A DNA stretch of 34,843 nt from the IMG/VR virus record IMGVR_UViG_3300037104_000290, positions 1 to 34,843 of that record; one strand, written 5' to 3'. A program made the translations under genes and the position numbers. This document shows positions 14,443 through 34,843 of the stretch, piece by piece. The notes beneath the pieces are model-generated. The model worked only from the letters and a program-made list of their open reading frames with translations, searched no databases and had not been told where the DNA came from. Each line of letters begins with the position of its first letter. The stretch's first letter is position 1. This DNA is from a virus.

Positions 14443-14472
14443 TTGCAAAACTATATAAAACGGGTGTATAAT
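14443..14472 (+). promoter_or_regulatory. Sigma70-type promoter of the plus-strand moron
   Basis: TTGCAA (14443-14448), 18-nt spacer, TATAAT (14467-14472) preceded by TG. GGAGGA RBS and ATG 14490 follow. Confidence 0.6.
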
Positions 14473-14489
14473 GGCCACAGGAGGACTAT

Positions 14490-15315: not shown

Positions 15316-15319
15316 AAGA

Positions 15320-15340
15320 GGGGGGCCTTGTGAGCCCCCC
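15320..15340. terminator. GC hairpin between convergent genes; intrinsic terminator for the capsid gene, possibly bidirectional
   Basis: GGGGGGC-cttgtga-GCCCCCC. On the minus strand it is followed by CTCTTTTATA. Confidence 0.65.
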
Positions 15341-15391
15341 AAAGTGCAAGGAGGAGGTAAGTGAAGAGCGGGTCGGGCTCTATCTTACTTT

Positions 15392-16789: not shown

Positions 16790-16807
16790 ATTTCATAACC
16801 TCCTGTG

Positions 16808-17437: not shown

Positions 17438-17448
17438 ATCAGCCTCCC

Positions 17449-18117
17449 TTACTGGTTGAAGTACGAATATACCGGGAACTCTGCAAACGTGATACTTGTC
17501 CAATACGTCGTACTTGACGCCGTAGTCGGACATCCGAGAGAGATCGAAGTCCCAGGAGGCATGATGACCGAACTCTTGAAATCCCATAGGATATTCGAGA
17601 TCGTCCCCGACGCCGCCGCGCCTTCCAACCAGTGGTTGATTCCAAGATCCATCAGAACCGCAGGCTGAGTCGTGAATGTTACCGCGGCGTTTGCAAACCT
17701 CGTGTTACACGCACCACGCCCAACCATATTTGAGGAAGGTGCAATGTTGGTAAAGGTTGCAAGCGGTGCCCCAGTCCCTACTCCATCGCCCGTATTCTTC
17801 AGCCAGCTAATCGAGAACCCCTGCAAGGCAGGAGTACCGACGGCCGCCACTGAAAGAGCGATGAACATGGGCACTACCACCTTCCCAGAGCTTGCGGCAT
17901 TCCATAGCGTAGGGGAATTGGTGAGAGTCGTGTTGATAGGGATTGCAGCAGCGGCTCCCGAACGTGCCGTGAAAACAAATCCCTGTCTTGTCCATTCGTA
18001 ATAATCGGATGCGCCGGGAATCATCACCTGTTCCCCGTAGTCACCCGACCTAAGATAACTGGGTTGCCCTTTCGTAAAGGGCCCAACAAATCCTACTTGA
18101 GACTGAAAATCAAGCAT
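17449..18117 (-). CDS. Virion-associated protein, paralog of 18133-18813
   Basis: Shared blocks: TTLTN.P.LWN...SGK.V.P, AVGTP...G, TGAP..TF.NIAP, FAN..VT.T.QP, TSI.FAE.P. Confidence 0.5.
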   Translation of the reverse strand: MLDFQSQVGFVGPFTKGQPSYLRSGDYGEQVMIPGASDYYEWTRQGFVFTARSGAAAAIPINTTLTNSPTLWNAASSGKVVVPMFIALSVAAVGTPALQGFSISWLKNTGDGVGTGAPLATFTNIAPSSNMVGRGACNTRFANAAVTFTTQPAVLMDLGINHWLEGAAASGTISNILWDFKSSVIMPPGTSISLGCPTTASSTTYWTSITFAEFPVYSYFNQ

Positions 18118-18132
18118 GTTTCATTTCCTCCC

Positions 18133-18813
18133 TTAGCTCACCAGCAAGGGGATCTCGGCAAACAGAATCGACGTAATGTATGTCGTCGAAGTTGCCGCAG
18201 GAGTCCCGCCGAAAGCTATAAGGCTGCCTGGGTTGATTTGAACTGCCCCCTCGAAGTCATGGAAAAGGGTGACGGGAGTTGAAATCGCATCTGTTCCACT
18301 CTTCCACATCGAAAGGCCAGGATAGTAGAACGCCGTCGGCTGCGCCGTATAGGTAACGGTTGCATTTGCGAACAGCGTCGATGCCGTCCCTTGTTTACCG
18401 AGGTTCGTACCGATGGGGGCAATGTTCGCGAAGGTGATGACCGGTGCTCCCGTTGCCGCCACAGACCCTGCACTATTCAGGAAGCATCCCACAAGACCCG
18501 TGATCACAGGAGTCCCCACGGCTCCGGGGGTAAGAGTGATCTTGAGGGGGATGACGAGCTTTCCAGACCCCGCCGGGTTCCACAGCACCGGCCCGTTTGT
18601 CAGGGTAGTATATACAGGGATGGTGAGCAGGGTTCCGCTGGCCGTATAGACCCAACCCCTTCGACACCATTCCATGTACTTCCCGCCCAACTCGCTCATC
18701 ATGACTTCCCCCTGGTTCCCAGCACGGAAGTTGGTGACTTGCGAGTCGCCGAGGTTTTTAGGCCCTATGGTAAGGGCACTCGAAAAATCTACTTTGCCGA
18801 TATCAGTAGCCAT
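18133..18813 (-). CDS. Virion-associated protein, paralog of 17449-18117
   Basis: ORF 18133-18933 trimmed to ATG 18813 (AAAGGAGAA SD). Confidence 0.5.
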   Translation of the reverse strand: MATDIGKVDFSSALTIGPKNLGDSQVTNFRAGNQGEVMMSELGGKYMEWCRRGWVYTASGTLLTIPVYTTLTNGPVLWNPAGSGKLVIPLKITLTPGAVGTPVITGLVGCFLNSAGSVAATGAPVITFANIAPIGTNLGKQGTASTLFANATVTYTAQPTAFYYPGLSMWKSGTDAISTPVTLFHDFEGAVQINPGSLIAFGGTPAATSTTYITSILFAEIPLLVS

Positions 18814-18829
18814 CTTTTTTCTCCTTTCG

Positions 18830-19441
18830 TTAGGTGTAGTTGTTGCTGACTTCGGTCCACTCAAGGCAGATGTTCCAAACCAGAACACCTGTAGCCCCGA
18901 GTAGAATGTCGTTGGTAATGACGAAACCTTCATTCGCCCTGATCGTGATAGGATTGGTGGCGTCCTGCTGTCCGAGAATCAGATCGGGATTGTTGGATGA
19001 TGTTCCGATGGCCGTAGACGATCCGATCCATGAATAGAGCGCCTGATCGTCAAGCGTCCTCGTTCCTGCCGTTAGTGTCGCCGTGGTGGCAATCCTCATA
19101 TCGCCGTTTCCAGCGAACAGAAGAGACTGCGGCATCGTGGTATCAAGCGCCTGGTCTTTGGTCTGTGTCGTGGTGATTGCCGTCCCACCCGAGTCACTAA
19201 TGGTCCAACTTCTGGCAAACCATAGTGAGTTAGCGATCGCCTGAGCGGTACCGTAGGCAGTCACCGTGTAGAAATCCAGCATGATCGACTGCACAATCAT
19301 CCTGGTGGACGTTGAGGTCCAACGGCATGATAAGATAGGGGCAGCCGCCGCAAGGCCCGCCACTACAGAGCCGGTATACATGGAGATACGATATCCGCCA
19401 CCAGCCGGTGCTCTCTTGGAATACGGAGGATTCAAAGCCAT
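18830..19441 (-). CDS. Virion-associated protein, possibly a third remote paralog
   Basis: 203-aa ORF with AGGAGG SD. Beta-rich Thr/Ser/Ala composition like its two neighbours. Confidence 0.45.
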   Translation of the reverse strand: MALNPPYSKRAPAGGGYRISMYTGSVVAGLAAAAPILSCRWTSTSTRMIVQSIMLDFYTVTAYGTAQAIANSLWFARSWTISDSGGTAITTTQTKDQALDTTMPQSLLFAGNGDMRIATTATLTAGTRTLDDQALYSWIGSSTAIGTSSNNPDLILGQQDATNPITIRANEGFVITNDILLGATGVLVWNICLEWTEVSNNYT

Positions 19442-19451
19442 TTATGGCCTC

Positions 19452-21314
19452 CTATGCCGGCCCCGCCGGCGCTGGCCCACCGCTCTGCGCGGGGGCAGTC
19501 ATAGGTCCGGGTCCAGCCGACGGCTGCCCTTGTAACGGTAGAGGCCCAGTCGGGCCTTGTACGTTCGGTGGTTTCATAGCGTTCTGCTGTGCAATAGCCT
19601 CTTGCTGCTGCTGCATAGCATTCGCCTTTGCCATGTCGTCCATGGCATCCATCTTGCCTTTGACGACATCAATTAGCTTTTTCAGCCTATCAAGCACTTC
19701 CTGTTTCTCATCGTTGGAGTCCAGACGCAAAAGTGTGTTGATCGTCTCACCAAAAAGCTGTTGAAGGTTGACACCCTCGAAGAAATCGTACTTGTCATCT
19801 TCAACCGCTCGCTCTATCACGCGCTGGCAATAATCGTAACTTGCCGAGGTGATGGAGTAGGCAGACTCAAGATCGGGAAATTCAAGAAGCACCGCTGCCA
19901 ACTCAGGTTTTATCACCTTCATGGCGATCAACTTCTCGATCTGCTCCATCTTCTTCTGCGGGTCTTTTGACAGTGAGGAAGACGCGGAGAACTGAATGGA
20001 GAACGATTCCCTTTCCTCTTTGATTTCAGCCCAAGTTATTCGAGCTCGGCCAAGTCTCTTGGGAAGGACTTCCGACTTGGCGGGAGCAACCTGAATGAAT
20101 ATGTTCGCCACGTCCATGAAGAAGTGGATGAATGACTGCAACCACGGATTGTGCCGGTCGCTCTCTACATCTTCCACAGTCTCAAGCGCAACACCGGAAG
20201 GATTGTTTCCCAGCGGATTTTTAGCCTGAGCCGACAATTGGGAAATACCGTTCATCTCCATGGCTTGAGAAATCCAAAATTGAAGTCCTTGCGTATAAGA
20301 TGGGTCGAGAGGAGCCGGGGTAGAAGTGACTACGGGAGTTGTCATGCCCGGCAGATACTTGTAAGGGTAAACTGCTCCGATCTCGTTGGAGATCATAGAG
20401 GCCTTTACACCCGTCCCCTCCACAACCCAGTGTATTTGAGCGGGGTTCAACTCGTAGGCGAGATGTATCTTGTGGCAGAGCGAATCGACTTGTGTCTGGA
20501 TGGTGAATGTATTGTCCGCCATAGAGACGGACTGGTTGCCTTTGATCGGCTGCTCGAGATAAAGAACAGCAGCGGGTGGGACATCGAAATCTATGTCAAC
20601 AATCTCGATAATCTTTCCAGCCGCGAAGGTGTATTTCTTTTTCTCGAATAGTGCGTAGTAAATGGACATCTCCCCACGGAGAAAAGGGGTATCAATTATA
20701 TCGTTGTACAGTTCTTTAGCCGCCGCCTTAGCCTCAGCATCAATCCCCTTGCCAGCCTTGATCTTGTCCTTGAGCTGTATTAGCGGATACATATGCTCGA
20801 CGACAGCGCATCGACTTAAGGGCCCACGGTTCCATTCCTTCGGGTCAACCAAGTATTCCCAAGGATTGAGAATGCGAAACTCTAGCTTGTCATCGTCGAG
20901 CCAAAGAATGCCGCGCTCGAAAATGTCAGCCCTTCGCGCAACCTCTATGGCTTTCCTATAAACATCCTGCTCCTCATAGAGCTGGTCGAAAAACAACTGA
21001 GCGTTTCGGCAAGTCTTGAGAGTCTTGAACGTGCCACCCGTAGGATTGAAGAACGGTCTTACTTTCGTCTCGCTAATCTTGGAAACGTGCGTATCAATGC
21101 AGACACGAATGACGTTAAGGTTCGGTACAGTCCCCTCGTCCTCTCCCTCGTCGGTATTGTAGTAGCTGAGGGCCTGACCATACTGATTGCGCAGGTCTTC
21201 AATGCGCCGTCCATTGTTGGCGTACCGGTTGAATGACCGTCGCCACTTGGTCATCATCTTATTGACTTCGGCACCGAGGAATGCAAGATCGTTTCTGACT
21301 TTATCGACGGTCAA
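19452..21314 (-). CDS. Portal protein
   Basis: 620-aa ORF downstream of the terminase and upstream of scaffold/capsid. TTG start in a TTGA overlap. Gln/Pro-rich C-terminal tail. Confidence 0.6.
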   Translation of the reverse strand: MTVDKVRNDLAFLGAEVNKMMTKWRRSFNRYANNGRRIEDLRNQYGQALSYYNTDEGEDEGTVPNLNVIRVCIDTHVSKISETKVRPFFNPTGGTFKTLKTCRNAQLFFDQLYEEQDVYRKAIEVARRADIFERGILWLDDDKLEFRILNPWEYLVDPKEWNRGPLSRCAVVEHMYPLIQLKDKIKAGKGIDAEAKAAAKELYNDIIDTPFLRGEMSIYYALFEKKKYTFAAGKIIEIVDIDFDVPPAAVLYLEQPIKGNQSVSMADNTFTIQTQVDSLCHKIHLAYELNPAQIHWVVEGTGVKASMISNEIGAVYPYKYLPGMTTPVVTSTPAPLDPSYTQGLQFWISQAMEMNGISQLSAQAKNPLGNNPSGVALETVEDVESDRHNPWLQSFIHFFMDVANIFIQVAPAKSEVLPKRLGRARITWAEIKEERESFSIQFSASSSLSKDPQKKMEQIEKLIAMKVIKPELAAVLLEFPDLESAYSITSASYDYCQRVIERAVEDDKYDFFEGVNLQQLFGETINTLLRLDSNDEKQEVLDRLKKLIDVVKGKMDAMDDMAKANAMQQQQEAIAQQNAMKPPNVQGPTGPLPLQGQPSAGPGPMTAPAQSGGPAPAGPA

Positions 21315-21559
21315 TATGCCTTCTCCCTTTCAGGATCAAGCACCGGCGTCTGGTAACGATCAAACGCATCCGCCTTCTTGAGATCGAGCTTTGTTCCGTT
21401 GGGAAATGAAAGCGTAGCTACGACATCAACCCGCGCCTCGTTGATAAGCGCCTGGATAATCCCATAGTCAGGGTCTTTGCCGATGAAACGCTTATAGGCC
21501 CTCTGTTGGGCTTCCTGTTGTTTGATTGCTCGATATGCTGCTCGGAGTTCTCGTATCAC
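21311..21559 (-). CDS. Hypothetical 82-aa protein
   Basis: GTG start at 21559, embedded in the conserved element 21555-21576. No SD. Confidence 0.5.
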   Translation of the reverse strand: MIRELRAAYRAIKQQEAQQRAYKRFIGKDPDYGIIQALINEARVDVVATLSFPNGTKLDLKKADAFDRYQTPVLDPEREKAY

Positions 21560-21606
21560 ACATATATAAGGTATGAGTCAAGGCGGTTTGGATTACATTT
21601 TAACTA

Positions 21607-21679
21607 TTCAGCGTGAAGGGGTTGAACCTCCAACCGCAGGCTCCAAAGGCCCGTGCTCTACCAATTGAGCTAACGCTGA
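21607..21679 (-). tRNA. tRNA-Gln (anticodon UUG)
   Basis: Hand-folded cloverleaf: acceptor TCAGCGT/ACGCTGA, D arm GCTC-AATTGGTA-GAGC, anticodon arm CGGGC-CTTTGGA-GCCTG, variable CGGTT, T arm GGAGG-TTCAACC-CCTTC, discriminator A. No encoded CCA. Confidence 0.85.
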
Positions 21680-21704
21680 CCGTAAACTACCATGCCAGAT
21701 CAAG

Positions 21705-22301
21705 TTATCTTACTTTAAATGACTTTATGGAATCCTTACTTAAAGCCACGGCTCCACCATTCCTTATTTTCACAAAATCACATTTCGTCTTTGAGTAAAA
21801 ATAAGACAGAGCCTCGCCATCATTAATATCCCAAAAACCCGCCGAATCAACTATATTGGTAGGGTTAATCTCTTCATGGAATAGCTCTTTTGCTCTTTCA
21901 ATGTTGTCACCCGAAGATTCTTGAATACGAATCATACATTCTGCTATGGCAGCAGGAGCCACATCCTTATTAGTGTCACGGTTCATCTTGTCAAACAACT
22001 TGTCCGTATTACCCTTGTCAGTGGCATCGAAAACCTTTGAGGGTTCCTTAATCGCCCAAACAGATCCCTTTTCTCCGGCATACATTTCTGCGGTGCCAGC
22101 ATCCCTTGTCATCTCAATAACATGTCCCCCATGTTGTAGGTCACCAGATCCATTTCTACCATGGACATACCATCCACTTGGAACGTCTCCATTCAATATT
22201 GATTCTTTTACTTTTTCATCGCTACTATCTGTTTTATTTTCATCCTTGATGAGAATATGACCCCCGTTAGATGTTACCCAGTGTCCATTTTCATCACTCA
22301 T
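21705..22301 (-). CDS. AT-rich moron protein with N-terminal GHWVT..GGHILI motif (as in MuF-type/polyvalent virion proteins)
   Basis: ORF 21705-22412 trimmed to ATG 22301 (TAGGAGG SD at 7-nt spacing). Visibly lower GC than the flanks. Confidence 0.55.
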   Translation of the reverse strand: MSDENGHWVTSNGGHILIKDENKTDSSDEKVKESILNGDVPSGWYVHGRNGSGDLQHGGHVIEMTRDAGTAEMYAGEKGSVWAIKEPSKVFDATDKGNTDKLFDKMNRDTNKDVAPAAIAECMIRIQESSGDNIERAKELFHEEINPTNIVDSAGFWDINDGEALSYFYSKTKCDFVKIRNGGAVALSKDSIKSFKVR

Positions 22302-22321
22302 GCCAAACCTCCTACCGCAAG

Positions 22322-22438
22322 CTAATGATGCGTTGAATCCCCTATTGCCATTACCAACAGAAACCAACCTATGCCAAGGAACGCGCACTCGGCTGCGAAC
22401 GTCATCAGCCACGCCATGAACTTGTCGAAATCAGTCAT
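22322..22438 (-). CDS. Possible 38-aa membrane peptide (MTDFDKFMAWLMTFAAECAFLGIGWFLLVMAIGDSTHH)
   Basis: Hand-translated. TAATG junction with the upstream minigene and a hydrophobic core. Confidence 0.3.
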   Translation of the reverse strand: MTDFDKFMAWLMTFAAECAFLGIGWFLLVMAIGDSTHH

Positions 22439-22611
22439 TACGTCACCCCCCTCGACCTGGTGCTCATGGGGAAGAGCACGGCCCCTCCCCCAGCGATCAC
22501 CCTAACCATTTTGTGACCGTCCTTCTGACAGTAGATGTCGGGGTCGTCCTTAATGCTATGATCTTCCTCCCGTACACGTTTGCAGACAGGGCACCGATAG
22601 AGATATGTCAA
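22438..22611 (-). CDS. 57-aa FmdB-like zinc-ribbon protein
   Basis: Hand-translated from TTG 22611 (TTGA overlap). YLYRCPVCKRV...IYCQKDGHKMVRV matches the FmdB-type Zn-ribbon pattern. Confidence 0.45.
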   Translation of the reverse strand: MTYLYRCPVCKRVREEDHSIKDDPDIYCQKDGHKMVRVIAGGGAVLFPMSTRSRGVT

Positions 22612-22949
22612 TTAACACTCCCCCCAGGAAGAACAAGCCCCGACATAGCCTCTTGCGCCTTCTGGATCAAGTCGGGCAGACCGCAATCAGTGATCATCAG
22701 AATCGAAGTCTTAGGCACCCTGATTTGTTTGGGCTGGAACTCGCTCCCCGATACCTTGATCATCTGGATATCAGCAATCCCCGTCTTTCTGCTCGATACG
22801 ATGATCACAAGCGTCTTGTCACCGTCGAATACCCACGAATCGCTATCCTCCCGTGCTGTCTCACTGTAGAAAAACTGACCAGTGAGTAGCTGGTAGATAC
22901 AGGGAATCCCCGCAGTCGCGTTCTTGCCATTCTTGTCAACCAAATGCAC
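22608..22949 (-). CDS. Hypothetical 113-aa protein
   Basis: GTG start at 22949, preceded by GGAAGGAGGA. Confidence 0.55.
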   Translation of the reverse strand: MHLVDKNGKNATAGIPCIYQLLTGQFFYSETAREDSDSWVFDGDKTLVIIVSSRKTGIADIQMIKVSGSEFQPKQIRVPKTSILMITDCGLPDLIQKAQEAMSGLVLPGGSVN

Positions 22950-22994
22950 TTAATCCTCCTTCCGCGTGATTACCTATGCGCGGCCCAGGAAATA

Positions 22995-23156
22995 CTATAT
23001 CTCTTTCAATGCTTTCTCTATCAATTCATCCATACCATGTCGACGAAGATATTTGAAGACCCGAACCATACAATCGTAGCACCATCCATCAGAAAACATG
23101 CCAGAGTTATTGACTTCAATCTTCCCGCATCCAAAGCAATGGAATTGTCCTTTCAT
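22995..23156 (-). CDS. 53-aa zinc-ribbon protein (CFGCG...CYDC)
   Basis: Hand-translated: MKGQFHCFGCGKIEVNNSGMFSDGWCYDCMVRVFKYLRRHGMDELIEKALKEI. ATGA overlap with the upstream stop. Confidence 0.5.
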   Translation of the reverse strand: MKGQFHCFGCGKIEVNNSGMFSDGWCYDCMVRVFKYLRRHGMDELIEKALKEI

Positions 23157-23443
23157 TTCCTTTTGAGCGGCTTTTTGAAATCAGGGTGCGGAGTTACATC
23201 CTCAATACCCAACCGCTTCCGCTGTCTCCTAATATCTTCTGCATTGGGTGCTGTGCACCATGTACAGTTGCAATCCCTGCACGGCATGGCTTGTGTCATC
23301 TGGTAATGCCGAGACAGTCGATGTCCACATTTGCACAGCATGGGAGCGGAGCGTGGGTCTTCTCGCTTCGATGCTTCTTGCATCTGCTCTTTCTCCATGT
23401 CGCGCATCCATGCAAGATCGCGTTTATCCGCCCAGCCCTTCAT
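23153..23443 (-). CDS. Cys-rich 96-aa protein, probable Zn-binding
   Basis: ORF 23153-23443. Contains CKCGH...H...CRDCNCTWC. Confidence 0.5.
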   Translation of the reverse strand: MKGWADKRDLAWMRDMEKEQMQEASKREDPRSAPMLCKCGHRLSRHYQMTQAMPCRDCNCTWCTAPNAEDIRRQRKRLGIEDVTPHPDFKKPLKRK

Positions 23444-23646
23444 CGCTCGATATTCTCCGGTACAGGTTCAGGCGGATCGATAGGACAGCCTACAATATCA
23501 AAAGGCTTATTAGCCTCGAATATCATGGCATCCGCTATATGATAGCTTGTCTTTGCAAGATCTTCACCCTTTACCATGCCTGGACTGGCAAGCAGTCCCT
23601 GCAAAGCAGCCATGGCGAATAGATCGCGCCGAGTCACTTCTTCCAT
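23440..23646 (-). CDS. Small phage protein with RDLFAMAALQGLLA motif
   Basis: ORF 23440-23700. Start probably ATG 23646, after the upstream minigene stop; earlier in-frame starts are possible. Confidence 0.5.
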   Translation of the reverse strand: MEEVTRRDLFAMAALQGLLASPGMVKGEDLAKTSYHIADAMIFEANKPFDIVGCPIDPPEPVPENIER

Positions 23647-23656
23647 TTCGTACACC

Positions 23657-23797
23657 TCATCCTCCCTTCTCAGCATTGCACTCTCTGACCTTTTTAGCAA
23701 GCGTTAGAAGCGCCTGCTCCCGGCTATTAGCCTTGTACCCATGCTCTACTTGTAGTTCGATAGTCTCGGCGATACACAACGCCTCGGATGGTGTCAT
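23657..23797 (-). CDS. 46-aa hypothetical protein
   Basis: Hand-translated: MTPSEALCIAETIELQVEHGYKANSREQALLTLAKKVRECNAEKGG. ATGA overlap with the terminase stop. Confidence 0.35.
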   Translation of the reverse strand: MTPSEALCIAETIELQVEHGYKANSREQALLTLAKKVRECNAEKGG

Positions 23798-25422
23798 CCT
23801 TGCCCTCCTGTAAATAGTTGTATTGGCCTCATGGCGTAGTGTACCGCCCGCATCTGATCAGGATGATACGTTTCGTCGTCTATCTCCCGCGTGAGTTGAT
23901 CCTGCTCATTGCGCTTGTAGATTGTCTTTAGACTCTCGTCCCACAGCGGGCCATCCTTACGACACTTAAAGACACCGCGCCTCGTCTCGTCCTGAAGCAG
24001 CTCGAAAGCCATCTCTTTTTCTTGATTGTAGGCTGCCTGTATCGGTAAGTGATAGGTATTATTGAGATCGAAGGGAGTGATAGCGTTGCCACCAGTGTCG
24101 GCATGGATATCAAAGTTTTTATTGACCACCTTAGAGAATATAGGCGATGTGTTGACATAGTCTATTCCAGCCCTACAGGCTTGTGCAATCTCTTCCGTTC
24201 CCTTACGATTCGCCTTCCACTCGTAGACAAGAAATCGTTGTGGTAAAGATATTGAGTAGCATACCACAGCGAGCGCGTCGGCGTCCTCAAACCCAAAATC
24301 CAAGCCGCTCGAAAAACGCACATCTGTAACAGGCTGTGAATCAATCCAAGCCTTAAGTTGAGCATCGTCAAAGCTATTCTCCTCCGTAAGTCTAAGCACA
24401 AGCGCATCATCATCATATGCTATCCTTCCTAGATACTCACGGATATAGAGCGGGTCAGTCTCTTTAAGGTTTTTCTCGGCGCGTATCATTTCTAGCTGGT
24501 GCTCGTGATCCGGGATGAAGGGGTTGTGCGTTAGGTTCCAATTGAGGCGCAGCGCGTCTGAGTACACCGGCGTTCCGTCGGGCTTCACACCCAGAAACAC
24601 CTCCTCCCAGTATGTACCCCGAACGCGCGGCCCCGTACCTCCCATAGCAAGCTGCCCCGCCTTGTCGATCAGCGTCGGCAGGATAATGGATTCCACGAGA
24701 TATCGAAGTTGCTTCTGCGACTGGCACTCATCTATGCCCACGCGATCCCAATACGGCCCGCGGTTCTTCTCCCGCTCGTCTTGGGTCGCGTTGCCGCCGA
24801 ACTTCATTATCCCATCATCTGCTGTGGTGATCGTTCCCTCAACGCGGTTGTGGCCTTTGATCTTGATGCCGAGGTCTTCCAACTTATCCAGCATCGGAGT
24901 CCAGAGCAAGCCCATAGCCGTGGTAGATGTGAGCCCGATATAGAGACAGCGTGCATCGCCGTGGTCAATGAACTCGTCAGCAAACCACTGGCGCAGGCCT
25001 ACCGTCTTCGCCCCGCGTCGCCCTGCCATGAGGAACAAATACTTCGACATGGTGAACAGGATCTGCCGCTGCATGTCTGTTGACTCTTTGTGCAATCGGT
25101 AGTGCAGAAAAGCGATCTCGCGCTTCTCCCCACGGGTCAGCCATTCGTCTATTTCGTCAAGTACATTGTCTTTGAATAGCCGCTCAGCAAGAAACCGCGA
25201 TTGCCAAGTGTTCTGCTTCTTGGCTCCCATCTTGAACTTGCTTAGGTAGTCGCGTAGGAATTGCTCCCCCTCACTCCCAGAGAGTAGGCCCATGAAGGAT
25301 TGAAGGGCGCGCTGTTTGTAGCCTGTACCGGCCGGACGCCCCGGACCCCCCGCTTTGCCTTCTTTGAACTGTGTATCCTTTTTTGTCCTTTTAATTTCTA
25401 CCGTGTCTGTACGTTTCGCCAT
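23794..25422 (-). CDS. terL: Terminase large subunit
   Basis: 542 aa. Walker A-like MAGRRGAKT, Walker B VGIDECQ, nuclease-domain GLDFGFEDADALAVV. Confidence 0.85.
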   Translation of the reverse strand: MAKRTDTVEIKRTKKDTQFKEGKAGGPGRPAGTGYKQRALQSFMGLLSGSEGEQFLRDYLSKFKMGAKKQNTWQSRFLAERLFKDNVLDEIDEWLTRGEKREIAFLHYRLHKESTDMQRQILFTMSKYLFLMAGRRGAKTVGLRQWFADEFIDHGDARCLYIGLTSTTAMGLLWTPMLDKLEDLGIKIKGHNRVEGTITTADDGIMKFGGNATQDEREKNRGPYWDRVGIDECQSQKQLRYLVESIILPTLIDKAGQLAMGGTGPRVRGTYWEEVFLGVKPDGTPVYSDALRLNWNLTHNPFIPDHEHQLEMIRAEKNLKETDPLYIREYLGRIAYDDDALVLRLTEENSFDDAQLKAWIDSQPVTDVRFSSGLDFGFEDADALAVVCYSISLPQRFLVYEWKANRKGTEEIAQACRAGIDYVNTSPIFSKVVNKNFDIHADTGGNAITPFDLNNTYHLPIQAAYNQEKEMAFELLQDETRRGVFKCRKDGPLWDESLKTIYKRNEQDQLTREIDDETYHPDQMRAVHYAMRPIQLFTGGQG

Positions 25423-26489: not shown

Positions 26490-26497
26490 CGATCATC

Positions 26498-26525
26498 ACT
26501 ATACCATCTCCCTGGGAGTTGTCAA
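26498..26525 (-). promoter_or_regulatory. Sigma70-type promoter abutting the first late gene (near-leaderless)
   Basis: Minus strand: TTGACA (26525-26520), 16-nt spacer, TATAGT (26503-26498). GTG start at 26489, only 8 nt after the -10. Confidence 0.55.
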
Positions 26526-26625
26526 CATCAGCGGGGACGTATGCGCGGGGCCGCTCGCGCCTTAACACTCACAACCCCTTGGTACCATCCCCGCGTAATC
26601 TACTGTATCACATCACGGGGGAATG

Positions 26626-26674
26626 TCAAACAAAAACGAGAAAGGCGGAGTCTCCCTGGCTCGGGATTCCGCCT
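26626..26674 (-). terminator. Intrinsic terminator in the late-operon leader
   Basis: Minus strand: AGGCGGA-A-TCCC-GAGCCA-GGGA-GAC-TCCGCCT hairpin followed by TTCTCGTTTTTGTTTG. Confidence 0.6.
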
Positions 26675-26715
26675 CCCTTCCTAGCCCTCCCTCTTGGGGA
26701 CTATATGATAATCCA

Positions 26716-26744
26716 TATATAGCAAAACAATAGAAAGATTACAA
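26716..26744 (-). promoter_or_regulatory. Sigma70-type promoter driving a short terminated leader RNA
   Basis: Minus strand: TTGTAA (26744-26739), 17-nt spacer, TATATA (26721-26716). The terminator hairpin starts about 35 nt downstream of the predicted start. Confidence 0.5.
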
Positions 26745-26957
26745 GAGGTTGGTGAGAACACAGTTATCCCTCAAGCCGGATGTATTGAGTGGGGGCGTGT
26801 CTGTGGGCTTTTAGTGGCCCCCAGCCCCACCCATAGAAAGACCGACGGGAAGCGAAACACAAGACTAGTGGCGTCGTGTGAGTACCACTCCCGCATAGAT
26901 CGGCGAGCGTGTCAATACTATTAAGACAATATCACCTGATAGCAAAAATGATATCTA

Positions 26958-26986
26958 TTGACAAGTATGGAAAAGTGATATAAAAT
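26958..26986 (+). promoter_or_regulatory. Early rightward sigma70 promoter
   Basis: TTGACA (26958-26963), 17-nt spacer, TAAAAT (26981-26986). Alternative -10 is TG-extended TATAAA. Flanked by TGATA[GT] repeats. Confidence 0.65.
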
Positions 26987-26993
26987 CGACATC

Positions 26994-27053
26994 ATGAACA
27001 AGAAAAAGAAGAAAGCGGTTAGGAAGGCATTCCTGGTGCGAATCCACCCGTGA
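26994..27053 (+). pseudogene. 19-codon remnant of an RHH gene (or leader peptide): MNKKKKKAVRKAFLVRIHP*
   Basis: Aligns with the N-terminus of 31040-31249 (MGKKKLTKPARRAILIRIHPW...). The promoter upstream is also similar (tattgacaag). Confidence 0.45.
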
Positions 27054-27134
27054 CGGATTGTCGGAAACGTGCCATACTCTGATCATCAAGACGGATGCGG
27101 GGTAGTGAGGTACCGATCCACGGAGGTATAGGGC

Positions 27135-27410
27135 ATGGAAAAGAAGACGGTTTTGACAGGATTTGCTATCGTCGTCTGTGATCGGGGTTTTGTGTATGTC
27201 GGCCAGATGACCCATGATGGAGAGTTCGCCGTGCTCGAAGGAGCCCGCAATATTCGCTACTGGGGAACGACAAACGGGCTCGGGGAGCTGGCGCTCAATG
27301 GTCCGACGAGCAAAACGAAGCTGGATGCCTGTGGGACTGTTCGCGTCCCGGCGCATGCGGTCATCAACATCCTCGATACGGAGGCAAGAAAATGGCCGTC
27401 CTCGAAGTAA
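27135..27410 (+). CDS. Small conserved phage protein (pattern VVC..G.VYVG......VLEGARNIRYWG...GLGELA..GP), function unknown
   Basis: ORF 27135-27410 with GGAGG SD. I recognise the pattern as a recurrent small phage family. Confidence 0.7.
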   Translation: MEKKTVLTGFAIVVCDRGFVYVGQMTHDGEFAVLEGARNIRYWGTTNGLGELALNGPTSKTKLDACGTVRVPAHAVINILDTEARKWPSSK

Positions 27411-27694
27411 CGCTCGACGGTTCCGGTTACGGTTACGGTTACGGTTACGGTTACGGTTCCGGTGACGGTGACGGTTACGGTTACGGTTCCGGTGACGGTT
27501 ACGGTTACGGTGACGGTTACGGTTCCGGTTCCGGTTACGGTTACGGTTACGGTGACGGTTCCGGTTACGGTTACGGTTACGGTTACGGTTCCGGTTACGG
27601 TTACGGTTCCGGTTACGGTTCCGGTGACGGTTACGGTTCCGGTGACGGTAACGGTTACGGTTCCGGTTACAGTGACGGTGACGGTGACGGGTAA
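27392..27694 (+). CDS. Dipeptide-repeat protein (Gly-[Tyr/Ser/Asp/Asn])n
   Basis: ORF 27392-27694. GGAGG at 27380-27384, 7 nt before the ATG. Overlaps the upstream gene by 19 nt. Confidence 0.6.
   Translation: MAVLEVTLDGSGYGYGYGYGYGSGDGDGYGYGSGDGYGYGDGYGSGSGYGYGYGDGSGYGYGYGYGSGYGYGSGYGSGDGYGSGDGNGYGSGYSDGDGDG
27419..27691. repeat. About 45 tandem hexamers GGT-[T/G/A][A/C]C
   Basis: Read directly: ggttac, ggttcc, ggtgac, one ggtaac, one agtgac. Confidence 0.95.
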
Positions 27695-27699
27695 AAGGA

Positions 27700-27725
27700 A
27701 CGGCCGGGGTGCGACTCCCGGCCGT
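27700..27725 (+). other. Stable 9-bp GC hairpin after the GY-repeat gene, with no U-tract
   Basis: ACGGCCGGG-gtgcgact-CCCGGCCGT. Confidence 0.5.
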
Positions 27726-27819: not shown

Positions 27820-28059
27820 ATGATCGACAAAAAGCGCATAGCGAACCTGATCGTTGAGATGGGTGAGGGTGACTTCTTCGACTCACTTGTCAGGGTGGTC
27901 AAAGACCGGGAAATCACGGAGTGGGTGGATGGCGGAGAGAACTTCGACGACAAGGCTTACAAAGAGTTTACCGATGCCACCACATGCGCAGGATTGCTCG
28001 CATATCGAATGCGAGAGGGTAGCAAGGAATCGGCGAAGAGAAAGGACGCAACAGAATGA
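27820..28059 (+). CDS. Hypothetical 79-aa acidic protein
   Basis: ATG 27820 within ORF 27709-28059, preceded by AAGGAGAGGG. Confidence 0.55.
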   Translation: MIDKKRIANLIVEMGEGDFFDSLVRVVKDREITEWVDGGENFDDKAYKEFTDATTCAGLLAYRMREGSKESAKRKDATE

Positions 28060-28928
28060 AAGCAAAATCCACAAAGCGCGGGCAGCCGAAGGGGACGGCG
28101 GTAATGAAGAAGGAGTCTTCTCTGCTAATACCGGCCGAGGGCAAGATCGATTTCCAGACTCTTGTGGCCCGGGCGATCGACAAGAGCCTGCCCGTCGAGA
28201 CTATGGAGCGGCTCCTCGCGATGGTAGAGAAGCAGAAAGCGGCATGGGCGAAGGATCAATTCTTCGCAGCCCTTTCGCGGTTTCAAAATGCCTGTCCACC
28301 CGTCAAAAAGACTCATGATGTCTATGATCGCAAAGGTGCCTATCGTTATAGCTACGCGGCGCTTGAGGATATTGTGGAGACCGTAAAGACTCCATTGGAG
28401 CGAAACGGTTTGAGCTACACGATCAAGACCGAGCAGAACAAGGACGAGGTTGCGGCAATCTGCATTGCTCACCACGTGGATGGACACGAGGAGCAGACTC
28501 GTTTTGCCGTCCCCATCGATCATGAGGCATACATGAACGCGGCGCAGAAGGTAGCAAGCGCTCTTACCTACGCGAAACGCTACGCATTCAATAATGCCTT
28601 CGGGATCATGACGGCGGAAGATGATGACGACGCTCAAGGCACAGGGGCTCCAAAGAAGCAGCATACAGCCCGCAAAGAATACGCCGATGAGCCAGTCGAC
28701 ATCGAGTATGAGGTTGGGGGAGGCAAGGGGAGCAAGTCAGATATCCCCGTCGCGTCTTCCGCCGACTGCCAGGCCCTCTACGATGCAATCCTGCCTAAGT
28801 TGGAAACCATGGCGCCGAATGTGGCGAACCGCTTCCGCGACACGGCGGATCGGAACCTTGAACAGAAAAACTGCGATGCTCTCAAGGCATTACTGGATAC
28901 CGTGAATCGAATAGAGGCAAAGGCATGA
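28056..28928 (+). CDS. erf: ERF-family single-strand annealing protein
   Basis: YRYSYAALEDIVETVKTPLERNGL...HHVDGHEE...QKVASALTYAKRYAFNNAFGIMTAEDDDDA matches the ERF pattern. ATGA overlap. Confidence 0.75.
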   Translation: MKAKSTKRGQPKGTAVMKKESSLLIPAEGKIDFQTLVARAIDKSLPVETMERLLAMVEKQKAAWAKDQFFAALSRFQNACPPVKKTHDVYDRKGAYRYSYAALEDIVETVKTPLERNGLSYTIKTEQNKDEVAAICIAHHVDGHEEQTRFAVPIDHEAYMNAAQKVASALTYAKRYAFNNAFGIMTAEDDDDAQGTGAPKKQHTARKEYADEPVDIEYEVGGGKGSKSDIPVASSADCQALYDAILPKLETMAPNVANRFRDTADRNLEQKNCDALKALLDTVNRIEAKA

Positions 28929-29676: not shown

Positions 29677-30528
29677 ATGACAGGCTACAAGGTATTCACG
29701 TACGACAGGCGCCCGCCGGTGCAGGGTGGTGATCCCATCTGGGACGGGGCGATGCCCTACGACCTGCCTACCGTTAAGCTGGATCGCGGCGCTGCGGAGT
29801 GCGCGGCAGGTTGGCATTTCTGCTTGTCTCTACCAATCGCTCTGCGCATTGTAGGGCTGTGGCCCGATGGTCGACCGTCGTGCGTGGCCGCAGTTGAGGC
29901 TGATGACGTGGTGGAGCGAGAGGAGAAATGTCGCGCGGCTACCCTACACCTCACGCGTTGGCTGGACGAGGCGGAGATCAGAGACGGTGTGCTGGAGATG
30001 TCGGCTCCGTTTGGCGCGCACGCAGAGACGATGACCTCCGAGCAGATGTCGTGGCGCACAGCTCTGGCTCGGCCTCAACACGACCGTGCTAACGTAGAGG
30101 CAGGACTACATATAGCGATGGCGACGCGGGGATTGGACTGGCAACTCAGAGAGTTTCCAACCGCCTGGGACGCCAGGGCCGCCAAGGACACCTGGGACGC
30201 CAGGGACGCCAGGGCCGCCAGGGACGCCAGGGCCTCCTGGTCCGCCTGGGACGCCTGGGACGCCAGGGCCGCCTGGTCCGCCAGGGCCGCCTGGGACGCC
30301 AGGGCCGCCTGGGCCGCCTGGGCCGCCAAGGACACCTGGGACGCCAGGGCCGCCTGGGCCGCCATGGTGGTCTATTACGTTGCTCTAATGGGATGGATCA
30401 AATATCCTGCGGATCTGCTCACCGACGGGCTCCGCGATGCGTACTCATTCGGTCTCGGGATTGCTCTGCCGACTGGACCGAGAGAGTTGGGATGGGCGAT
30501 GGATGCCCACGAGGGGAGGACGAGGTGA
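29677..30528 (+). CDS. Repeat protein paralog A: YKVF...GWHFC N-terminal domain plus (Ala-[Trp/Arg/Lys]-[Asp/Ala/Ser])n array plus conserved tail
   Basis: ORF 29677-30528. AAGGAGA SD. The N-terminal pattern GYKVF...C..GWHFC is a recurrent phage domain of unknown function. Confidence 0.75.
   Translation: MTGYKVFTYDRRPPVQGGDPIWDGAMPYDLPTVKLDRGAAECAAGWHFCLSLPIALRIVGLWPDGRPSCVAAVEADDVVEREEKCRAATLHLTRWLDEAEIRDGVLEMSAPFGAHAETMTSEQMSWRTALARPQHDRANVEAGLHIAMATRGLDWQLREFPTAWDARAAKDTWDARDARAARDARASWSAWDAWDARAAWSARAAWDARAAWAAWAAKDTWDARAAWAAMVVYYVALMGWIKYPADLLTDGLRDAYSFGLGIALPTGPRELGWAMDAHEGRTR
30163..30363. repeat. About 22 tandem 9-nt units GCC-NGG-G[A/C]C (variants ACC, TCC, AAG)
   Basis: Read directly, in frame with the CDS. 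Confidence 0.9.
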
Positions 30529-32460: not shown

Positions 32461-33027
32461 ATGAGGATAATGGATGCGATGCTGGCGGGGGCGTGCAGGG
32501 AGCAGCGGGAGCGCTTTGCAGCCGAATGGCCTGATGGAGCCGAGGTTACGGAGGCTAACGTGCTGCGGGCGTTCGTCCTTGGGTTGGACGTAGACTGGCT
32601 CTTGAGCCATGTCCTGCCGGCCCCGCTGTGGGCGGAGTACCAGCGGCAGGAGGACCCGCTGTTGGCGGAGTACGAGCGGCAGAGGGCCCCGCTGTTGGCG
32701 GAGTACCAGCGGCAGAGGGCCCCGCTGTGGGCGGAGTACCGGTGGCAGGAGGACCCGCTGTTGGCGGAGTACGAGCGGCAGAGGGCCCCGCTGTTGGCGG
32801 AGTACCAGCGGCAGAGGGCCCCGCTGTTGGCGGAGTACCAGCGGCAGGAGGCCCCGCTGTTGGCGGAGTACCAGCGGCAGAGGGCCCCGCTGTGGGTGGA
32901 GTACCAGCGGCAGGAGGCCCAGCTGTTGGAGGAGTACCAGCGGCAGAGGGCCCCGCTGTGGGCGGAGTACCAGCGGCAGAGGGCCCCGCTGATCGTAGCG
33001 ATGCTGGAGCGAGGAGGCGAGAGATGA
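32461..33027 (+). CDS. Repeat protein: ~55-aa N-terminal domain plus 11 copies of an 11-residue unit AEYQRQRAPL[L/W]
   Basis: ORF 32461-33027 with GAGGAGG SD. ATGA overlap with the next gene. Confidence 0.7.
   Translation: MRIMDAMLAGACREQRERFAAEWPDGAEVTEANVLRAFVLGLDVDWLLSHVLPAPLWAEYQRQEDPLLAEYERQRAPLLAEYQRQRAPLWAEYRWQEDPLLAEYERQRAPLLAEYQRQRAPLLAEYQRQEAPLLAEYQRQRAPLWVEYQRQEAQLLEEYQRQRAPLWAEYQRQRAPLIVAMLERGGER
32622..32992. repeat. About 11 tandem 33-nt units
   Basis: Read directly. The region is open in all three plus frames and one minus frame. Confidence 0.9.
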
Positions 33028-33212: not shown

Positions 33213-33950
33213 ATGTGTGACTTCTTTTCGTTTTGCTCCTACAACGAGACGTATTTGTATTCGGAATGGGAAGATCGAAAACGGGACTTTGAGCGCGCCG
33301 ACAGTCACACTGCGATCCTCATGCGAGCCGGTATCGATGTGCGCAAGCAGGAGAACTGGCAGAAGTACGAGTACAACTTACTGACAAAGGCATTCTTCGT
33401 GGACACGCCCGATTTGGGGGGAAATCACGATGTCGCCCGTCGTTGGGTCGAGCGTTTGGACTGGTCTACCATCGTTCCGGACCTGGCGATCAAGCCTATC
33501 GTCAACCCGTTTGAGTTGCAACCTCCGTCTATTACGGACGAGCATGTAAGATTGCTCGCGGCGTGGAACAGTGTGGGGGCCAGTGTGAGGGACAGTATGG
33601 GGGCCAGTGTGAGGGACAGTGTGGGGGCCAGTGTGTGGAACAGTGTGGGGGACAGTGTGTGGAACAGTATGGGGGTCAGTGTGAGGGACAGTGTGGGGGC
33701 CAGTGTGTGGAACAGTGTGGGGGACAGTGTGTGGAACAGTGTGGGGGCCAGTGTGAGGGCATACATATCGTCGTTTTTCACGATCAAATATAGTCACGAT
33801 CCAACCTCGGCTGTGCTCCTGTGGGATCAGGGGATCGTCCCGTCCTTTGACGGTACCACGTGGAGGCTACACGGAGGGAGAGACGCTAAGGTGCTGTACA
33901 CGATATCCGCAAAGGATCTTGCGGCCCACGAGGGGAAGGAGAAATCATGA
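33213..33950 (+). CDS. Repeat protein: MCDFFSF...SH N-terminal domain plus 16 tetrapeptide units Ser-Val-[Gly/Arg/Trp]-[Ala/Asp/Asn] plus C-terminal domain
   Basis: ORF 33213-33950 with AAGGAGA SD. The flanking-domain patterns (MCDF.S, LW..G.VPSFDG..WRL) recur in phage/bacterial hypothetical proteins I recall. Confidence 0.75.
   Translation: MCDFFSFCSYNETYLYSEWEDRKRDFERADSHTAILMRAGIDVRKQENWQKYEYNLLTKAFFVDTPDLGGNHDVARRWVERLDWSTIVPDLAIKPIVNPFELQPPSITDEHVRLLAAWNSVGASVRDSMGASVRDSVGASVWNSVGDSVWNSMGVSVRDSVGASVWNSVGDSVWNSVGASVRAYISSFFTIKYSHDPTSAVLLWDQGIVPSFDGTTWRLHGGRDAKVLYTISAKDLAAHEGKEKS
33570..33761. repeat. 16 tandem 12-nt units AGT-GTG-NGG-[G/A][A/C/T]C
   Basis: Each unit read directly. The NGG codon is GGG, AGG or TGG. 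Confidence 0.95.
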
Positions 33951-34843
33951 CAGGCTACAAGGTATTCACGTACGACAGGCGCCCGCCGGTGCAGGGTGGT
34001 GATCCCATCTGGGACGGGGCGATGCCCTACGACCTGCCTACCGTTAAGCTGGATCGCGGCGCTGCGGAGTGCGCGGCAGGTTGGCATTTCTGCTTGTCTC
34101 TACCAATCGCTCTGCGCATTGTAGGGCTGTGGCCCGATGGTCGACCGTCGCGCGTGGCCGCAGTTGAGGCTGATGACGTGGTGGAGCGAGAGGAGAAATG
34201 TCGCGCGGCTACCCTACACCTCACGCGTTGGCTGGACGAGGCCGAGATCCGCGACGGCGTGCTGGAGATGTCGGCTCCATTTGGAGCGCACGCAGAGACG
34301 ATGACCTCCGAGCAGATGTCGTGGCGCACAGCTCTGGCTCGGCCTCAACACGACCGTGCTAACGTAGAGGCAGGACTACGTATAGCGCTGGCAACGCGGG
34401 GATTGGACTGGCAACTCAGAGAGTTTCTGACCGCCTGGGACGCCAGGGCCGCCAGGGCCGCCTGGGCCGCCTGGGACGCCAGGGACGCCTGGGACGCCTG
34501 GGACGCCTGGGACGCCAGGGCCGCCTGGGACGCCGGGGCCGCCGGGGACGCCTGGGACGCCTGGGACGCCAGGGCCGCCAGGGCCGCCAGGGCCGCCTGG
34601 GACGCCAGGGCCGCCGGGGCCGCCAGGGACGCCTGGGACGCCTGGGACGCCTGGGACGCCGGGGCCGCCTGGGCCGCCATGACTGTGTGCTATACATCCC
34701 TGATGGGATGGATCAAATATCCTGCGGATCTGCTCACCGACGGGCTCCGCGATGCGTACTCATTCGGTCTCGGGATTGCTCTGCCGACTGGACCGAGAGA
34801 GTTGGGATGGGCGATGGATGCCCACGAGGGGAGGACGAGGTGA
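33947..34843 (+). CDS. Repeat protein paralog B (longer array). Its stop overlaps the GTG start of the methyltransferase across the circular junction
   Basis: ORF 33947-34843. The N-terminal 162 aa differ from paralog A at only a handful of positions. Confidence 0.75.
   Translation: MTGYKVFTYDRRPPVQGGDPIWDGAMPYDLPTVKLDRGAAECAAGWHFCLSLPIALRIVGLWPDGRPSRVAAVEADDVVEREEKCRAATLHLTRWLDEAEIRDGVLEMSAPFGAHAETMTSEQMSWRTALARPQHDRANVEAGLRIALATRGLDWQLREFLTAWDARAARAAWAAWDARDAWDAWDAWDARAAWDAGAAGDAWDAWDARAARAARAAWDARAAGAARDAWDAWDAWDAGAAWAAMTVCYTSLMGWIKYPADLLTDGLRDAYSFGLGIALPTGPRELGWAMDAHEGRTR
34433..34678. repeat. About 27 tandem 9-nt units GCC-NGG-G[A/C]C
   Basis: Read directly. The NGG codon is TGG, AGG or GGG. 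Confidence 0.9.

Follow-up and report, generated by a model that had tools for sequence, protein, structure and literature searches.

A gene for a small protein followed by an overlapping open reading frame (ORF) for an alternating dipeptide repeat forms a two-gene cassette that occurs twice in the viral contig IMGVR_UViG_3300037104_000290 of IMG/VR. We analyzed this contig at its whole length of 34,843 nt (hereafter called the window, to whose coordinates all positions refer). The two cassettes lie 12.6 kb apart and come in two flavors. In the first, gene A encodes a DUF6948 protein and is paired with an acidic, Tyr-rich (Gly-[Tyr/Ser/Asp])n ORF, termed Gly-X; in the second, gene B encodes a member of an acidic Sm-like family and is paired with a basic (Ser-[Gly/Arg/Trp])n ORF, termed Ser-X. 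As judged by comparison with other phages, selection acts at the protein level on both genes of each cassette, and they are co-inherited in almost all relatives. The cassette is, as far as can be told, real, general, and undescribed; none of the papers we found mentions DUF6948, and literature searches on phage dipeptide or Gly-Tyr repeats returned nothing relevant. Its coding status and its pairing are close to certain, and an interaction between the two products is plausible. Our favored explanation, in which we place somewhat better than even confidence, is a phage accessory cassette in which an Sm-fold protein acts with a disordered low-complexity peptide early in infection. An earlier note on this DNA had reported the four ORFs and their overlaps, by 19 nt at the A locus and as an ATGA at the B locus, and we found each of them as described.

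Small Genes and Repeat ORFs Are Strictly Paired

We sampled 80 viral contigs with relatives of A and 80 with relatives of B and ran Tandem Repeats Finder downstream of each small gene. A Gly-X repeat ORF adjoins gene A in 77/77 informative loci, downstream in 76 and upstream in 1; the other 3 of the 80 loci are uninformative, with the contig ending less than 25 nt from the gene. The Gly-X array lies no more than 150 nt from the A stop codon in 75 loci, a short array was overlooked by Tandem Repeats Finder in locus L062, and locus L012 instead carries two Gly-X ORFs just upstream of A. For gene B, we found a Ser-X ORF ~150 nt or less downstream in at least 75 of the 80 loci. The layout is thus kept in ~97% of homologous loci in both families, which bears out the claim of the earlier note that its double occurrence in one genome is unlikely to be due to chance. 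The pairing is strict, A being always associated with Gly-X and B always with Ser-X. The 1.22 Mb of fetched loci contain 149 hexamer-type arrays. Of these, 135 encode Gly-X or Ser-X and run on the same strand as the small gene, and the remainder are mostly degenerate versions of the same. The presence of an array next to the small gene is not a matter of chance. A large number of contigs stop directly behind the small gene or within the array, as would be expected if such repeats break short-read assemblies.

Both small-gene families are large and occur in uncultured as well as cultured phages. Gene A has 226 homologous clusters at 90% identity, and the DUF6948 family comprises at least 1444 representative clusters at 50% identity (E ≤ 1e-3); gene B has at least 1232 homologous clusters at 90% identity. 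We found no homologs of A or B on plasmids. Relatives of A also occur on contigs of metagenome-assembled genomes binned with many phyla, where the array is present in 10 of 12 informative cases. The A cassette is carried by the cultured Rhodobacter phage RcapNL (RcapNL_00047/00046) and by the 80-kb Rheinheimera Barba phages (gp018/gp017), and the cultured hosts are Alpha- and Gammaproteobacteria. It is also found in the uncultured phage genome MW202613, the repeat ORF of which is annotated as "lamprin" in GenBank. The two cultured systems, RcapNL and Barba, make the cassette directly testable.

Each cassette can occur without the other, and the majority of phages carry just one. In locus L056 (3210–4400) the two are directly adjacent, with the gene order A, Gly-X, B, Ser-X. 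In several loci (L102–L104, about 4400–5060; L093; L129; L150; L151), one B gene is followed by two or three Ser-X genes in tandem, each with its own leader; the basic leader MKKSIYKRNIGSRSWS..., present three times, is an example among these tandem genes.

The Repeat Frames Very Probably Encode Peptides

We compared the reading frames of the arrays among phages. The G-[Y/S/D] frame is open in 75/75 A-type arrays, and so is the S-[G/R/W] frame in almost every B-type array. Neither type of repeat ORF matched a PHROG or Pfam family. The other frames vary from phage to phage, encoding Ala-Thr, Gly-Thr, Val-Thr, or Ala-Met in A arrays and Gly-Ala, Gly-Arg, Gly-Leu, Gly-Val, or Gly-Gln in B arrays, and they often contain stop codons. 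The strongest argument for coding comes from codon use. Among 63 distinct B arrays, the dominant Ser codon is TCG in 27, TCT in 22, AGC in 9, TCA in 4, and AGT in 1. A swap between AGY and TCN takes two or three base changes and would make no sense unless selection acts on Ser as such. Among 73 A arrays, Gly is mostly written as GGC (59 arrays), GGG (12), or GGT (2), and Tyr as TAC or TAT.

The leaders that precede the arrays are ~8–15 residues long across the cassettes, and they are followed by up to ~70 dipeptide repeats. The leader sequence paired with A is MAVLEVTLDGSGYGYG, and the sequence paired with B is MTIRTIHSRYRRRSGRGSGS. The motif (V/L)-T-L-D-G is present in 58 of 75 A-type ORFs and is encoded with all four Thr, six Leu, and both Asp codons. 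Leaders of the B type are basic throughout, with a mean of 4.1 Lys plus Arg and 0.06 Asp plus Glu per ~12 residues (typically MRGLKQKYR). Since residues are kept through codon replacement and the frame is always open, the repeat ORFs are very likely to be protein-coding in the plus-strand frames. The codon-level comparison thus strongly supports the view of the earlier note that these frames are the real ones.

Start Signals of the Repeat ORFs Are Embedded in the Small Genes

The Gly-X start codon lies 10–22 nt before the end of the A stop codon in 56 of 61 distinct contexts, and in 53 of the 61 it is found at position −13, −16, or −19 relative to that end. A Shine-Dalgarno-like 4-mer is present in 34 of these contexts. 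In the window, the Gly-X ATG is made of the last base of the Lys-86 codon and the first two bases of the Trp-87 codon, Trp-87 being invariant in the A alignment, and a GGAGG lies in the T-E-A codons of A. In the B family, an overlap of the ATGA or TAATG/TGATG type occurs in 32 of 53 distinct contexts; the ATGA form accounts for 26 of the 53, and the start is a few bases away in most others. The conserved start/stop overlap supports coupled expression of the two genes, as the earlier note had suggested.

With few exceptions, the repeat ORFs begin at an ATG or GTG of their own and have a conserved Met-leader; a TTG start is found in two near-duplicate loci, and in two atypical B loci the repeat ORF lacks a start of its own. 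The B-type ORFs occupy all three frames relative to the small gene (50, 11, and 9 cases), and we found no common slippery heptamer in the upstream sequences listed. We discarded a fusion by programmed frameshifting on account of the separate starts, the three relative frames, and the missing heptamer.

Array Evolution and Peptide Composition

We analyzed which hexamer positions vary within arrays. In A arrays, positions 1 and 2 of the X codon vary in 32% and 28% of units, respectively, and all other positions in ≤5%, with both silent third positions at ~2%. In B arrays, position 1 of the X codon varies in 54% of units, and the other positions vary in 4–9%. The arrays of the window follow the pattern of their relatives, with variation at just 2 of the 6 hexamer positions in its A array. 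The residues found at X are Tyr or Trp and their single-step neighbors (TAC to GAC, AAC, or TCC; TGG to GGG, CGG, or AGG). Array length changes by whole units, too: Barba isolates differ by one hexamer (210 versus 216 nt), and in near-identical copies of the window phage from other samples the Ser-X ORF has 84, 66, or 34 residues, is in frame, and keeps its ATGA overlaps. We infer that slippage homogenizes the units fast and that selection maintains the mixture of residues at X. The arrays thereby represent a natural experiment, in which extreme low-complexity peptides under protein-level selection show how hexanucleotide arrays stay coding: the anchor residue is fixed, X is limited to single-step neighbors of Tyr or Trp, and length changes by whole units.

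The peptides differ in their charge. Gly-X peptides have a mean net charge of −9.8 and a median length of 83 residues; they span 25–150 residues and are Asp-rich. Ser-X peptides have a mean net charge of +10.4, an isoelectric point (pI) of 11.9, and a median length of 63 residues. With a mean net charge of −3.2 and a pI of 4.9, the B protein is acidic and thus complementary in charge to its basic peptide, and the A protein is nearly neutral. The acidic nature of B would argue against general RNA binding.

Both Small Proteins Are Predicted to Adopt an Sm/LSm-like Fold

Gene A matches the Pfam family DUF6948 (PF22253) over residues 13–85 (E = 9.2e-8) with 32.6 bits, above the curated gathering threshold of 27, and is thus a member of this family; many of its homologs bear a precomputed PF22253 label. 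Gene B has no Pfam or PHROG family. We next turned to predicted structures. The AlphaFold model of A (predicted local distance difference test score, pLDDT, 92.7) consists of five strands with an inserted helix (residues 49–55), and the model of B (pLDDT 82.0) of a helix (residues 13–16) followed by strands. The Sm/LSm fold is a small, strongly bent, five-stranded antiparallel β-sheet, usually with a preceding N-terminal helix. In Foldseek searches against the PDB, the top 50 matches of B are all Sm/LSm-domain chains (best 4m75_K, E = 5.7e-4), with target-normalized template modeling scores of 0.43–0.82. The list for A is dominated by Sm/LSm proteins and includes 4c92_A (E = 4.9e-3) and 3by7, a metagenomic "Sm/LSm-like" protein. 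The two lists overlap, for example in 4m75_D and 1m8v_A. Both A and B are thus predicted with good confidence to form an Sm/LSm-like β-barrel. By eye, B shows an Sm1-like G-x-L-x3-N pattern without the Sm2 R-G, and profile searches of A and B against PDB sequences returned nothing at E ≤ 10.

The earlier note had proposed, from an alignment by eye, that the two small proteins are related. At the sequence level this did not hold: BLASTP found no alignment between A and B, and the profile-profile comparison with hhalign was not significant, either with alignments of 35 and 30 sequences (probability 0.6%, E = 0.09) or with larger ones of 116 and 93 (probability 0.5%, E = 0.12). We therefore rejected A and B as one protein family. 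The structural part of the proposal fared better, since both models match Sm/LSm structures and little else, and thus do not represent the unrelated folds that would have spoken against it. In addition, the weak hhalign match picks the stretch that had been aligned by eye (roughly residues 7–42 of A and 16–51 of B), which lies on β-strands of both models. A and B share fold class and gene architecture only, and common ancestry is not established by sequence.

Some DUF6948 representatives (P0241, P0242, and P0246; 180–230 residues) are tandem fusions of two DUF6948 domains. They are compatible with an oligomeric assembly of the single-domain form and are no proof of it. Among the 150 best DUF6948 representatives, we found no protein that fuses the small-protein domain to a repeat.

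A Model for the Cassette and Its Alternatives

In the explanation that we favor, the Sm-fold protein of ~90 residues would oligomerize, as is usual for proteins of this fold, and would bind the leader or the repeat of its cognate peptide, which may be made beside it by translational coupling. This would yield a hub from which several disordered low-complexity arms extend. Just as possible would be a chaperone-client pair, in which the small protein controls an aggregation-prone or nucleic acid-sticky peptide. In either form, the complex might target nucleic acids or the ribonucleoprotein or DNA-metabolism machinery of the host early in infection, a role in keeping with the replication, recombination, and nucleotide-metabolism genes that surround the cassettes where neighbors are annotated. 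Peptide binding by the small protein is supported by the Foldseek matches of B, which include the peptide-binding LSm domains 6f9w_A (LSM14 with a 4E-T peptide) and 6am0_D (the Edc1-Dcp1-Dcp2-Edc3 decapping complex), and by the opposite charges of the B protein and its peptide. Peptides of the GYGYGYG type, moreover, have been studied as self-assembling (PMC8163036). If the two products indeed act together, the cassette would represent a novel kind of device by which viruses take over the host or form compartments.

Several observations weigh against this explanation. Neither A nor B matches the Pfam LSM model (E ≤ 0.1), and the canonical Sm2 RG motif is absent from both alignments; the formation of a ring is thus assumed from the fold alone. 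There is no charge complementarity at the A locus, where a nearly neutral protein is paired with an acidic peptide. Gene callers often skip the repeat ORF, and the differences in array length among metagenome assemblies may partly reflect assembly collapse. In B arrays, nearly all X codons have the form NGG, with Gly written as GGG 482 times versus 25 times with any other Gly codon. This bias may be explained by the need to keep Trp (TGG) under homogenization, and it could leave room for a constraint at the nucleotide level. Finally, the stoichiometric expression suggested by the earlier note and the physical interaction of the two products are steps that we infer.

A more specific version, which we consider unlikely, is a scaffold for condensates or fibrils, in which an Sm-fold ring would display several low-complexity peptides, acidic and Tyr-rich in one flavor and basic and rich in Arg and Trp in the other, and organize RNA or replication/recombination compartments within the infected cell. 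In phages that have both cassettes, such as the one in the window and that of L056, the polyanion and the polycation could coacervate. Such a scaffold would be a prokaryotic-virus counterpart of the RG- or RGG-tailed Sm/LSm proteins of eukaryotes.

The two products might also be independent effectors that share an operon. The peptide would then act alone, Gly-X as an acidic nucleic acid mimic or decoy and Ser-X as a polycation binding nucleic acid or membranes, and the Sm-like protein would be directed at something else, such as Rho or RNA-decay factors. The extreme and opposite charges of the peptides would fit such roles, as would the tandem Ser-X genes that follow a single B in some phages and the Gly-X ORFs located upstream of A in L012. 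Lone-acting small Sm-like proteins are known as well, among them Rof (PMC11018626) and GoF of phage T4 (PMC12152347). It is difficult to see, however, why independent genes should remain neighbors in ~97% of loci across very divergent phages in which every other neighbor changes, why A should be found only with Gly-X and B only with Ser-X, and why the ribosome binding site and start codon of the peptide should be embedded in conserved codons of the small gene. Adjacency, strict pairing, and embedded start signals therefore point to a functional dependence, and we regard independent action as possible but rather improbable.

We next considered whether the repeat may act as nucleic acid. An Sm-like protein could recognize the hexanucleotide repeat in the mRNA that encodes it, each subunit taking up one short motif in the manner of Hfq, Sm, or TRAP, and this device could serve autoregulation, RNA protection, or the assembly of a ribonucleoprotein filament, with translation of the repeat being secondary. 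Both small proteins have the predicted fold of classical RNA-binding rings, every array contains GG once per six bases with four or five of the six positions near-invariant within the array, the X codons of B arrays are nearly all NGG, and G-rich units such as GGGGTC and GGGAGC might form G-quadruplexes. However, the constant part of the unit differs among phages (AGC, AGT, TCG, TCT, or TCA before NGG; GGC, GGG, or GGT before TAC), and the encoded residue is kept while the small proteins stay 50–80% identical. The leaders, too, are conserved as amino acids, the correct frame is always open with its start codon at a fixed overlapping position, and the B protein is acidic. The arrays have no Rfam match and no consistent RNA secondary structure; the B array of the window is not unusual (z = +0.24), and the value for its A array (z = −2.9) stems from palindromic units specific to the unit type of this phage. 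Two concrete versions were rejected: a CsrA sponge with GGA every 6 nt fits only AGC-type arrays (9/63), and an Hfq-like A-R-N pattern fails for TCN-type arrays. Taken together, we think that an RNA-level device has a small chance of being correct. Least of all do we expect the array to be an element acting as DNA (for example protein-binding iterons, a site for packaging or replication, or a hot spot of recombination) or a neutral product of slippage in which several frames happen to be open. It is true that the window has two open plus-strand frames across its A array and three across its B array, that long minus-strand ORFs cross both, and that array length is unstable. In other phages, though, the minus-strand and alternative frames change identity or gain stops, whereas the residue is conserved across codon families and the leaders and starts are conserved. 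Within arrays, variation is confined to the positions that change X and spares silent sites, which is not a neutral pattern and renders this alternative very improbable.

Comparison with Known Systems

We compared the cassettes to systems in which similar folds or repeats are known. In the eukaryotic proteins Sm D1, D3, B, and LSm4, a low-complexity Arg-Gly or RGG tail extends from the C terminus of the Sm fold. The phage cassettes likewise join an Sm fold, as predicted, to dipeptide-repeat low-complexity sequences that include Arg and Gly. In the eukaryotic proteins, ring oligomerization makes the tails multivalent, whereas a ring in the phage proteins is predicted from the fold alone. The tail is fused to the domain in eukaryotes, but in the phages the repeat is encoded apart from it, by an overlapping ORF that has a start and a leader of its own. 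This repeat consists of Gly-Tyr/Ser/Asp or Ser-Gly/Arg/Trp dipeptides, and the phage proteins lack an Sm1/Sm2 signature, having no Pfam LSM match.

The GGGGCC hexanucleotide expansion in C9orf72 gives rise to dipeptide-repeat proteins that are pathological and made by non-AUG initiation. The phage arrays are likewise G-rich hexanucleotide arrays read as dipeptides; some B arrays are GGGGTC-like, and the alternative frames of phage arrays would give Gly-Ala, Gly-Arg, and others. The phages differ in using one selected frame with a conserved AUG or GUG and a leader, across hundreds of genomes.

Among phage and bacterial proteins, GoF, MotB.1, and Frd.2 of phage T4 are small, early-expressed LSm-like proteins, with GoF affecting mRNA levels (PMC12152347), and Rof is a small Sm-like inhibitor of the termination factor Rho (PMC11018626). 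An action on host RNA metabolism or transcription termination has been proposed for them (PMC12152347, PMC11018626). Genes A and B share with them the small LSm-like fold, as predicted, and appear to be early as well, but there is no detectable sequence relation, and Rof and GoF are absent from the top structural matches. In the literature, we found no report of a coupled repeat-peptide gene for GoF, MotB.1, Frd.2, or Rof.

The strict alternation of Gly with Tyr or Ser resembles silk- and lamprin-like Gly-X sequences and the GYGYGYG peptides (PMC8163036), which are prone to self-assembly. The likeness is compositional only: the phage peptides are Asp-rich, intracellular as far as known, and always accompanied by a DUF6948 gene.

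The cassettes also resemble precursors of ribosomally synthesized and post-translationally modified peptides (RiPPs) of the PqqA/PqqD type in having a short conserved leader, a repetitive core, and an adjoining gene for a ~90-residue protein, and the peptide genes are sometimes tandemly duplicated in phages, too. Unlike in RiPP clusters, no modifying enzyme is conserved near the peptide gene, and the partner has a predicted Sm-like fold rather than a PqqD-like winged helix; we therefore rejected a RiPP cluster. Only in two near-duplicate loci (L128 and L132) does a gene for a 411-residue radical-SAM enzyme with a B12-binding domain follow ~95 nt after the Ser-X ORF, which is too seldom for it to be a defining part of the cassette.

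It is likely that the gene callers, which often skip repeat ORFs, and the arrays, which probably break short-read assemblies, are the reason why this widespread class of phage peptides has been overlooked.

Gene Neighborhood

We scanned 148 neighboring ORFs per family with Pfam. The neighbors of A are mostly involved in replication, recombination, or modification (DnaB, SNF2/ResIII helicases, methylases, YqaJ, RecT, and VRR-NUC), and those of B mostly in nucleotide metabolism or modification (deoxyribosyltransferase, dCMP deaminase, ThyX, and methylases). No recurrent partner or enzyme was found among the 148 neighbors of either family. We also rejected a conserved third gene, the downstream genes differing from phage to phage. 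The A and Gly-X genes are located upstream of ERF in the window and in MW202613, A lies between DNA polymerase and exonuclease in Barba, and in one genome B and Ser-X are found between ERF-YqaJ and the single-stranded DNA-binding protein SSB. In tblastn searches within 4 kb, however, ERF, RecT, exonuclease, or SSB was detected in only 9 of 41 A loci and 5 of 44 B loci. A specific link to these genes was rejected on this basis, and we describe the cassettes only as located in an early DNA-metabolism neighborhood.

Genome Context and Layout of the Two Loci

As a contig, the window seems to be phage-like and complete. Its nucleotides 1–127 are identical to 34717–34843 in an end comparison, and it is probably a circular, complete genome of ~34.7 kb; the 127-nt overlap sits in a gene with a paralog elsewhere in the genome, and a false join is possible. 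The ten large minus-strand ORFs that we scanned (5953–25422; 235–931 residues) gave no convincing PHROG or Pfam match, with two weak sub-threshold ones, and they presumably represent the structural and packaging genes. Because of these unmatched ORFs, the phage lineage is essentially uncharacterized. The region shows no nucleotide similarity to GenBank phages, and the only match in an Rfam scan is a tRNA-Gln (anticodon TTG, 21607–21679) amid the large minus-strand ORFs. An ERF recombinase gene is located at 28056–28928, adjoined by a gene for a PD-(D/E)XK-like nuclease.

The features of both loci are summarized in Table 1. Gene A is the first gene of the plus-strand early block. Upstream of it, 26490–27134 forms a stretch of ~650 nt without a convincing ORF that contains divergent, near-consensus sigma-70-like promoters and probably serves in early regulation; the 5′ leader of gene A would measure ~140 nt. 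Downstream of the Gly-X ORF, a minus-strand promoter-like site is found at 27801–27773, which, together with the hairpin that follows the Gly-X stop codon, could delimit a short RNA of ~75 nt, antisense or intergenic, in the gap that separates the Gly-X ORF from the gene after it.

The promoter in front of gene B opens a small plus-strand island between minus-strand gene blocks. This island also holds a third coupled ORF, which has no Pfam or PHROG family match and is holin-like in size and topology. It belongs to the operon of this phage lineage and lies outside the conserved cassette, since the genes downstream of the cassette vary among phages. The idea of a lysis cassette for the B operon was dropped, being unsupported in other phages.

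Table 1. Features of the A and B loci in window coordinates
Feature	Position	Strand	Description
Sigma-70-like promoters within 26490–27134	26525–26498 and 26629–26602	−	Consensus match
Sigma-70-like promoter TTGACA-17-TAAAAT	26958–26986	+	11/12 consensus matches; ~150 nt upstream of gene A; consensus match alone
Gene A	27135–27410	+	91-residue DUF6948 protein; predicted Sm/LSm-like β-barrel
Gly-X ORF start signals	27380–27394	+	GGAGG 27380–27384, ATG 27392–27394; inside the 3′ codons of A
Gly-X repeat ORF	27392–27694	+	100 residues, acidic; leader MAVLEVTLDG, then ~45 G-[Y/S/D/N] dipeptides
A-locus hexamer array	27417–27690		ACGGTT x45.7 (Tandem Repeats Finder)
GC-rich hairpin	27700–27725		9-bp stem; directly after the Gly-X stop; T-run on the minus-strand side
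Sigma-70-like promoter TTGCAA-18-TATAAT	14443–14472	+	10/12 consensus matches; directly upstream of gene B; consensus match alone
Gene B	14490–14750	+	86-residue acidic protein; no Pfam family; predicted Sm/LSm fold
Ser-X repeat ORF	14747–15001	+	84 residues, strongly basic; basic leader MTIRTIHSRYRRR, then ~35 S-[G/R/W] dipeptides
B-locus array	14784–14996		Period 12/18, hexamer GGAGCN (Tandem Repeats Finder)
Third coupled ORF	14998–15315	+	105 residues; overlaps the Ser-X stop by ATGA; signal-like N terminus and two further hydrophobic segments

Other Repeats in the Window

The plus-strand block of this phage is unusually rich in in-frame tandem repeats. Two paralogous ORFs (29677–30528, 283 residues; 33947–34843, 298 residues) share 94% nucleotide identity over their first 690 nt and show only a weak DUF7666 match. 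Both hold 9-nt arrays (30161–30364 and 34432–34678, respectively) that encode Trp/Asp/Ala/Arg-rich tripeptides, for example AWDARAAWD. The ORF at 32461–33027 (188 residues) contains eleven 33-nt repeats corresponding to the 11-residue unit APLLAEYQRQR; it has only a weak, sub-threshold CotJB match, and another frame as well as the opposite strand is open across its array. Eight 24-nt repeats in the ORF at 33213–33950 (245 residues) encode approximately (G/D)ASV(W/R)(N/D)SV.

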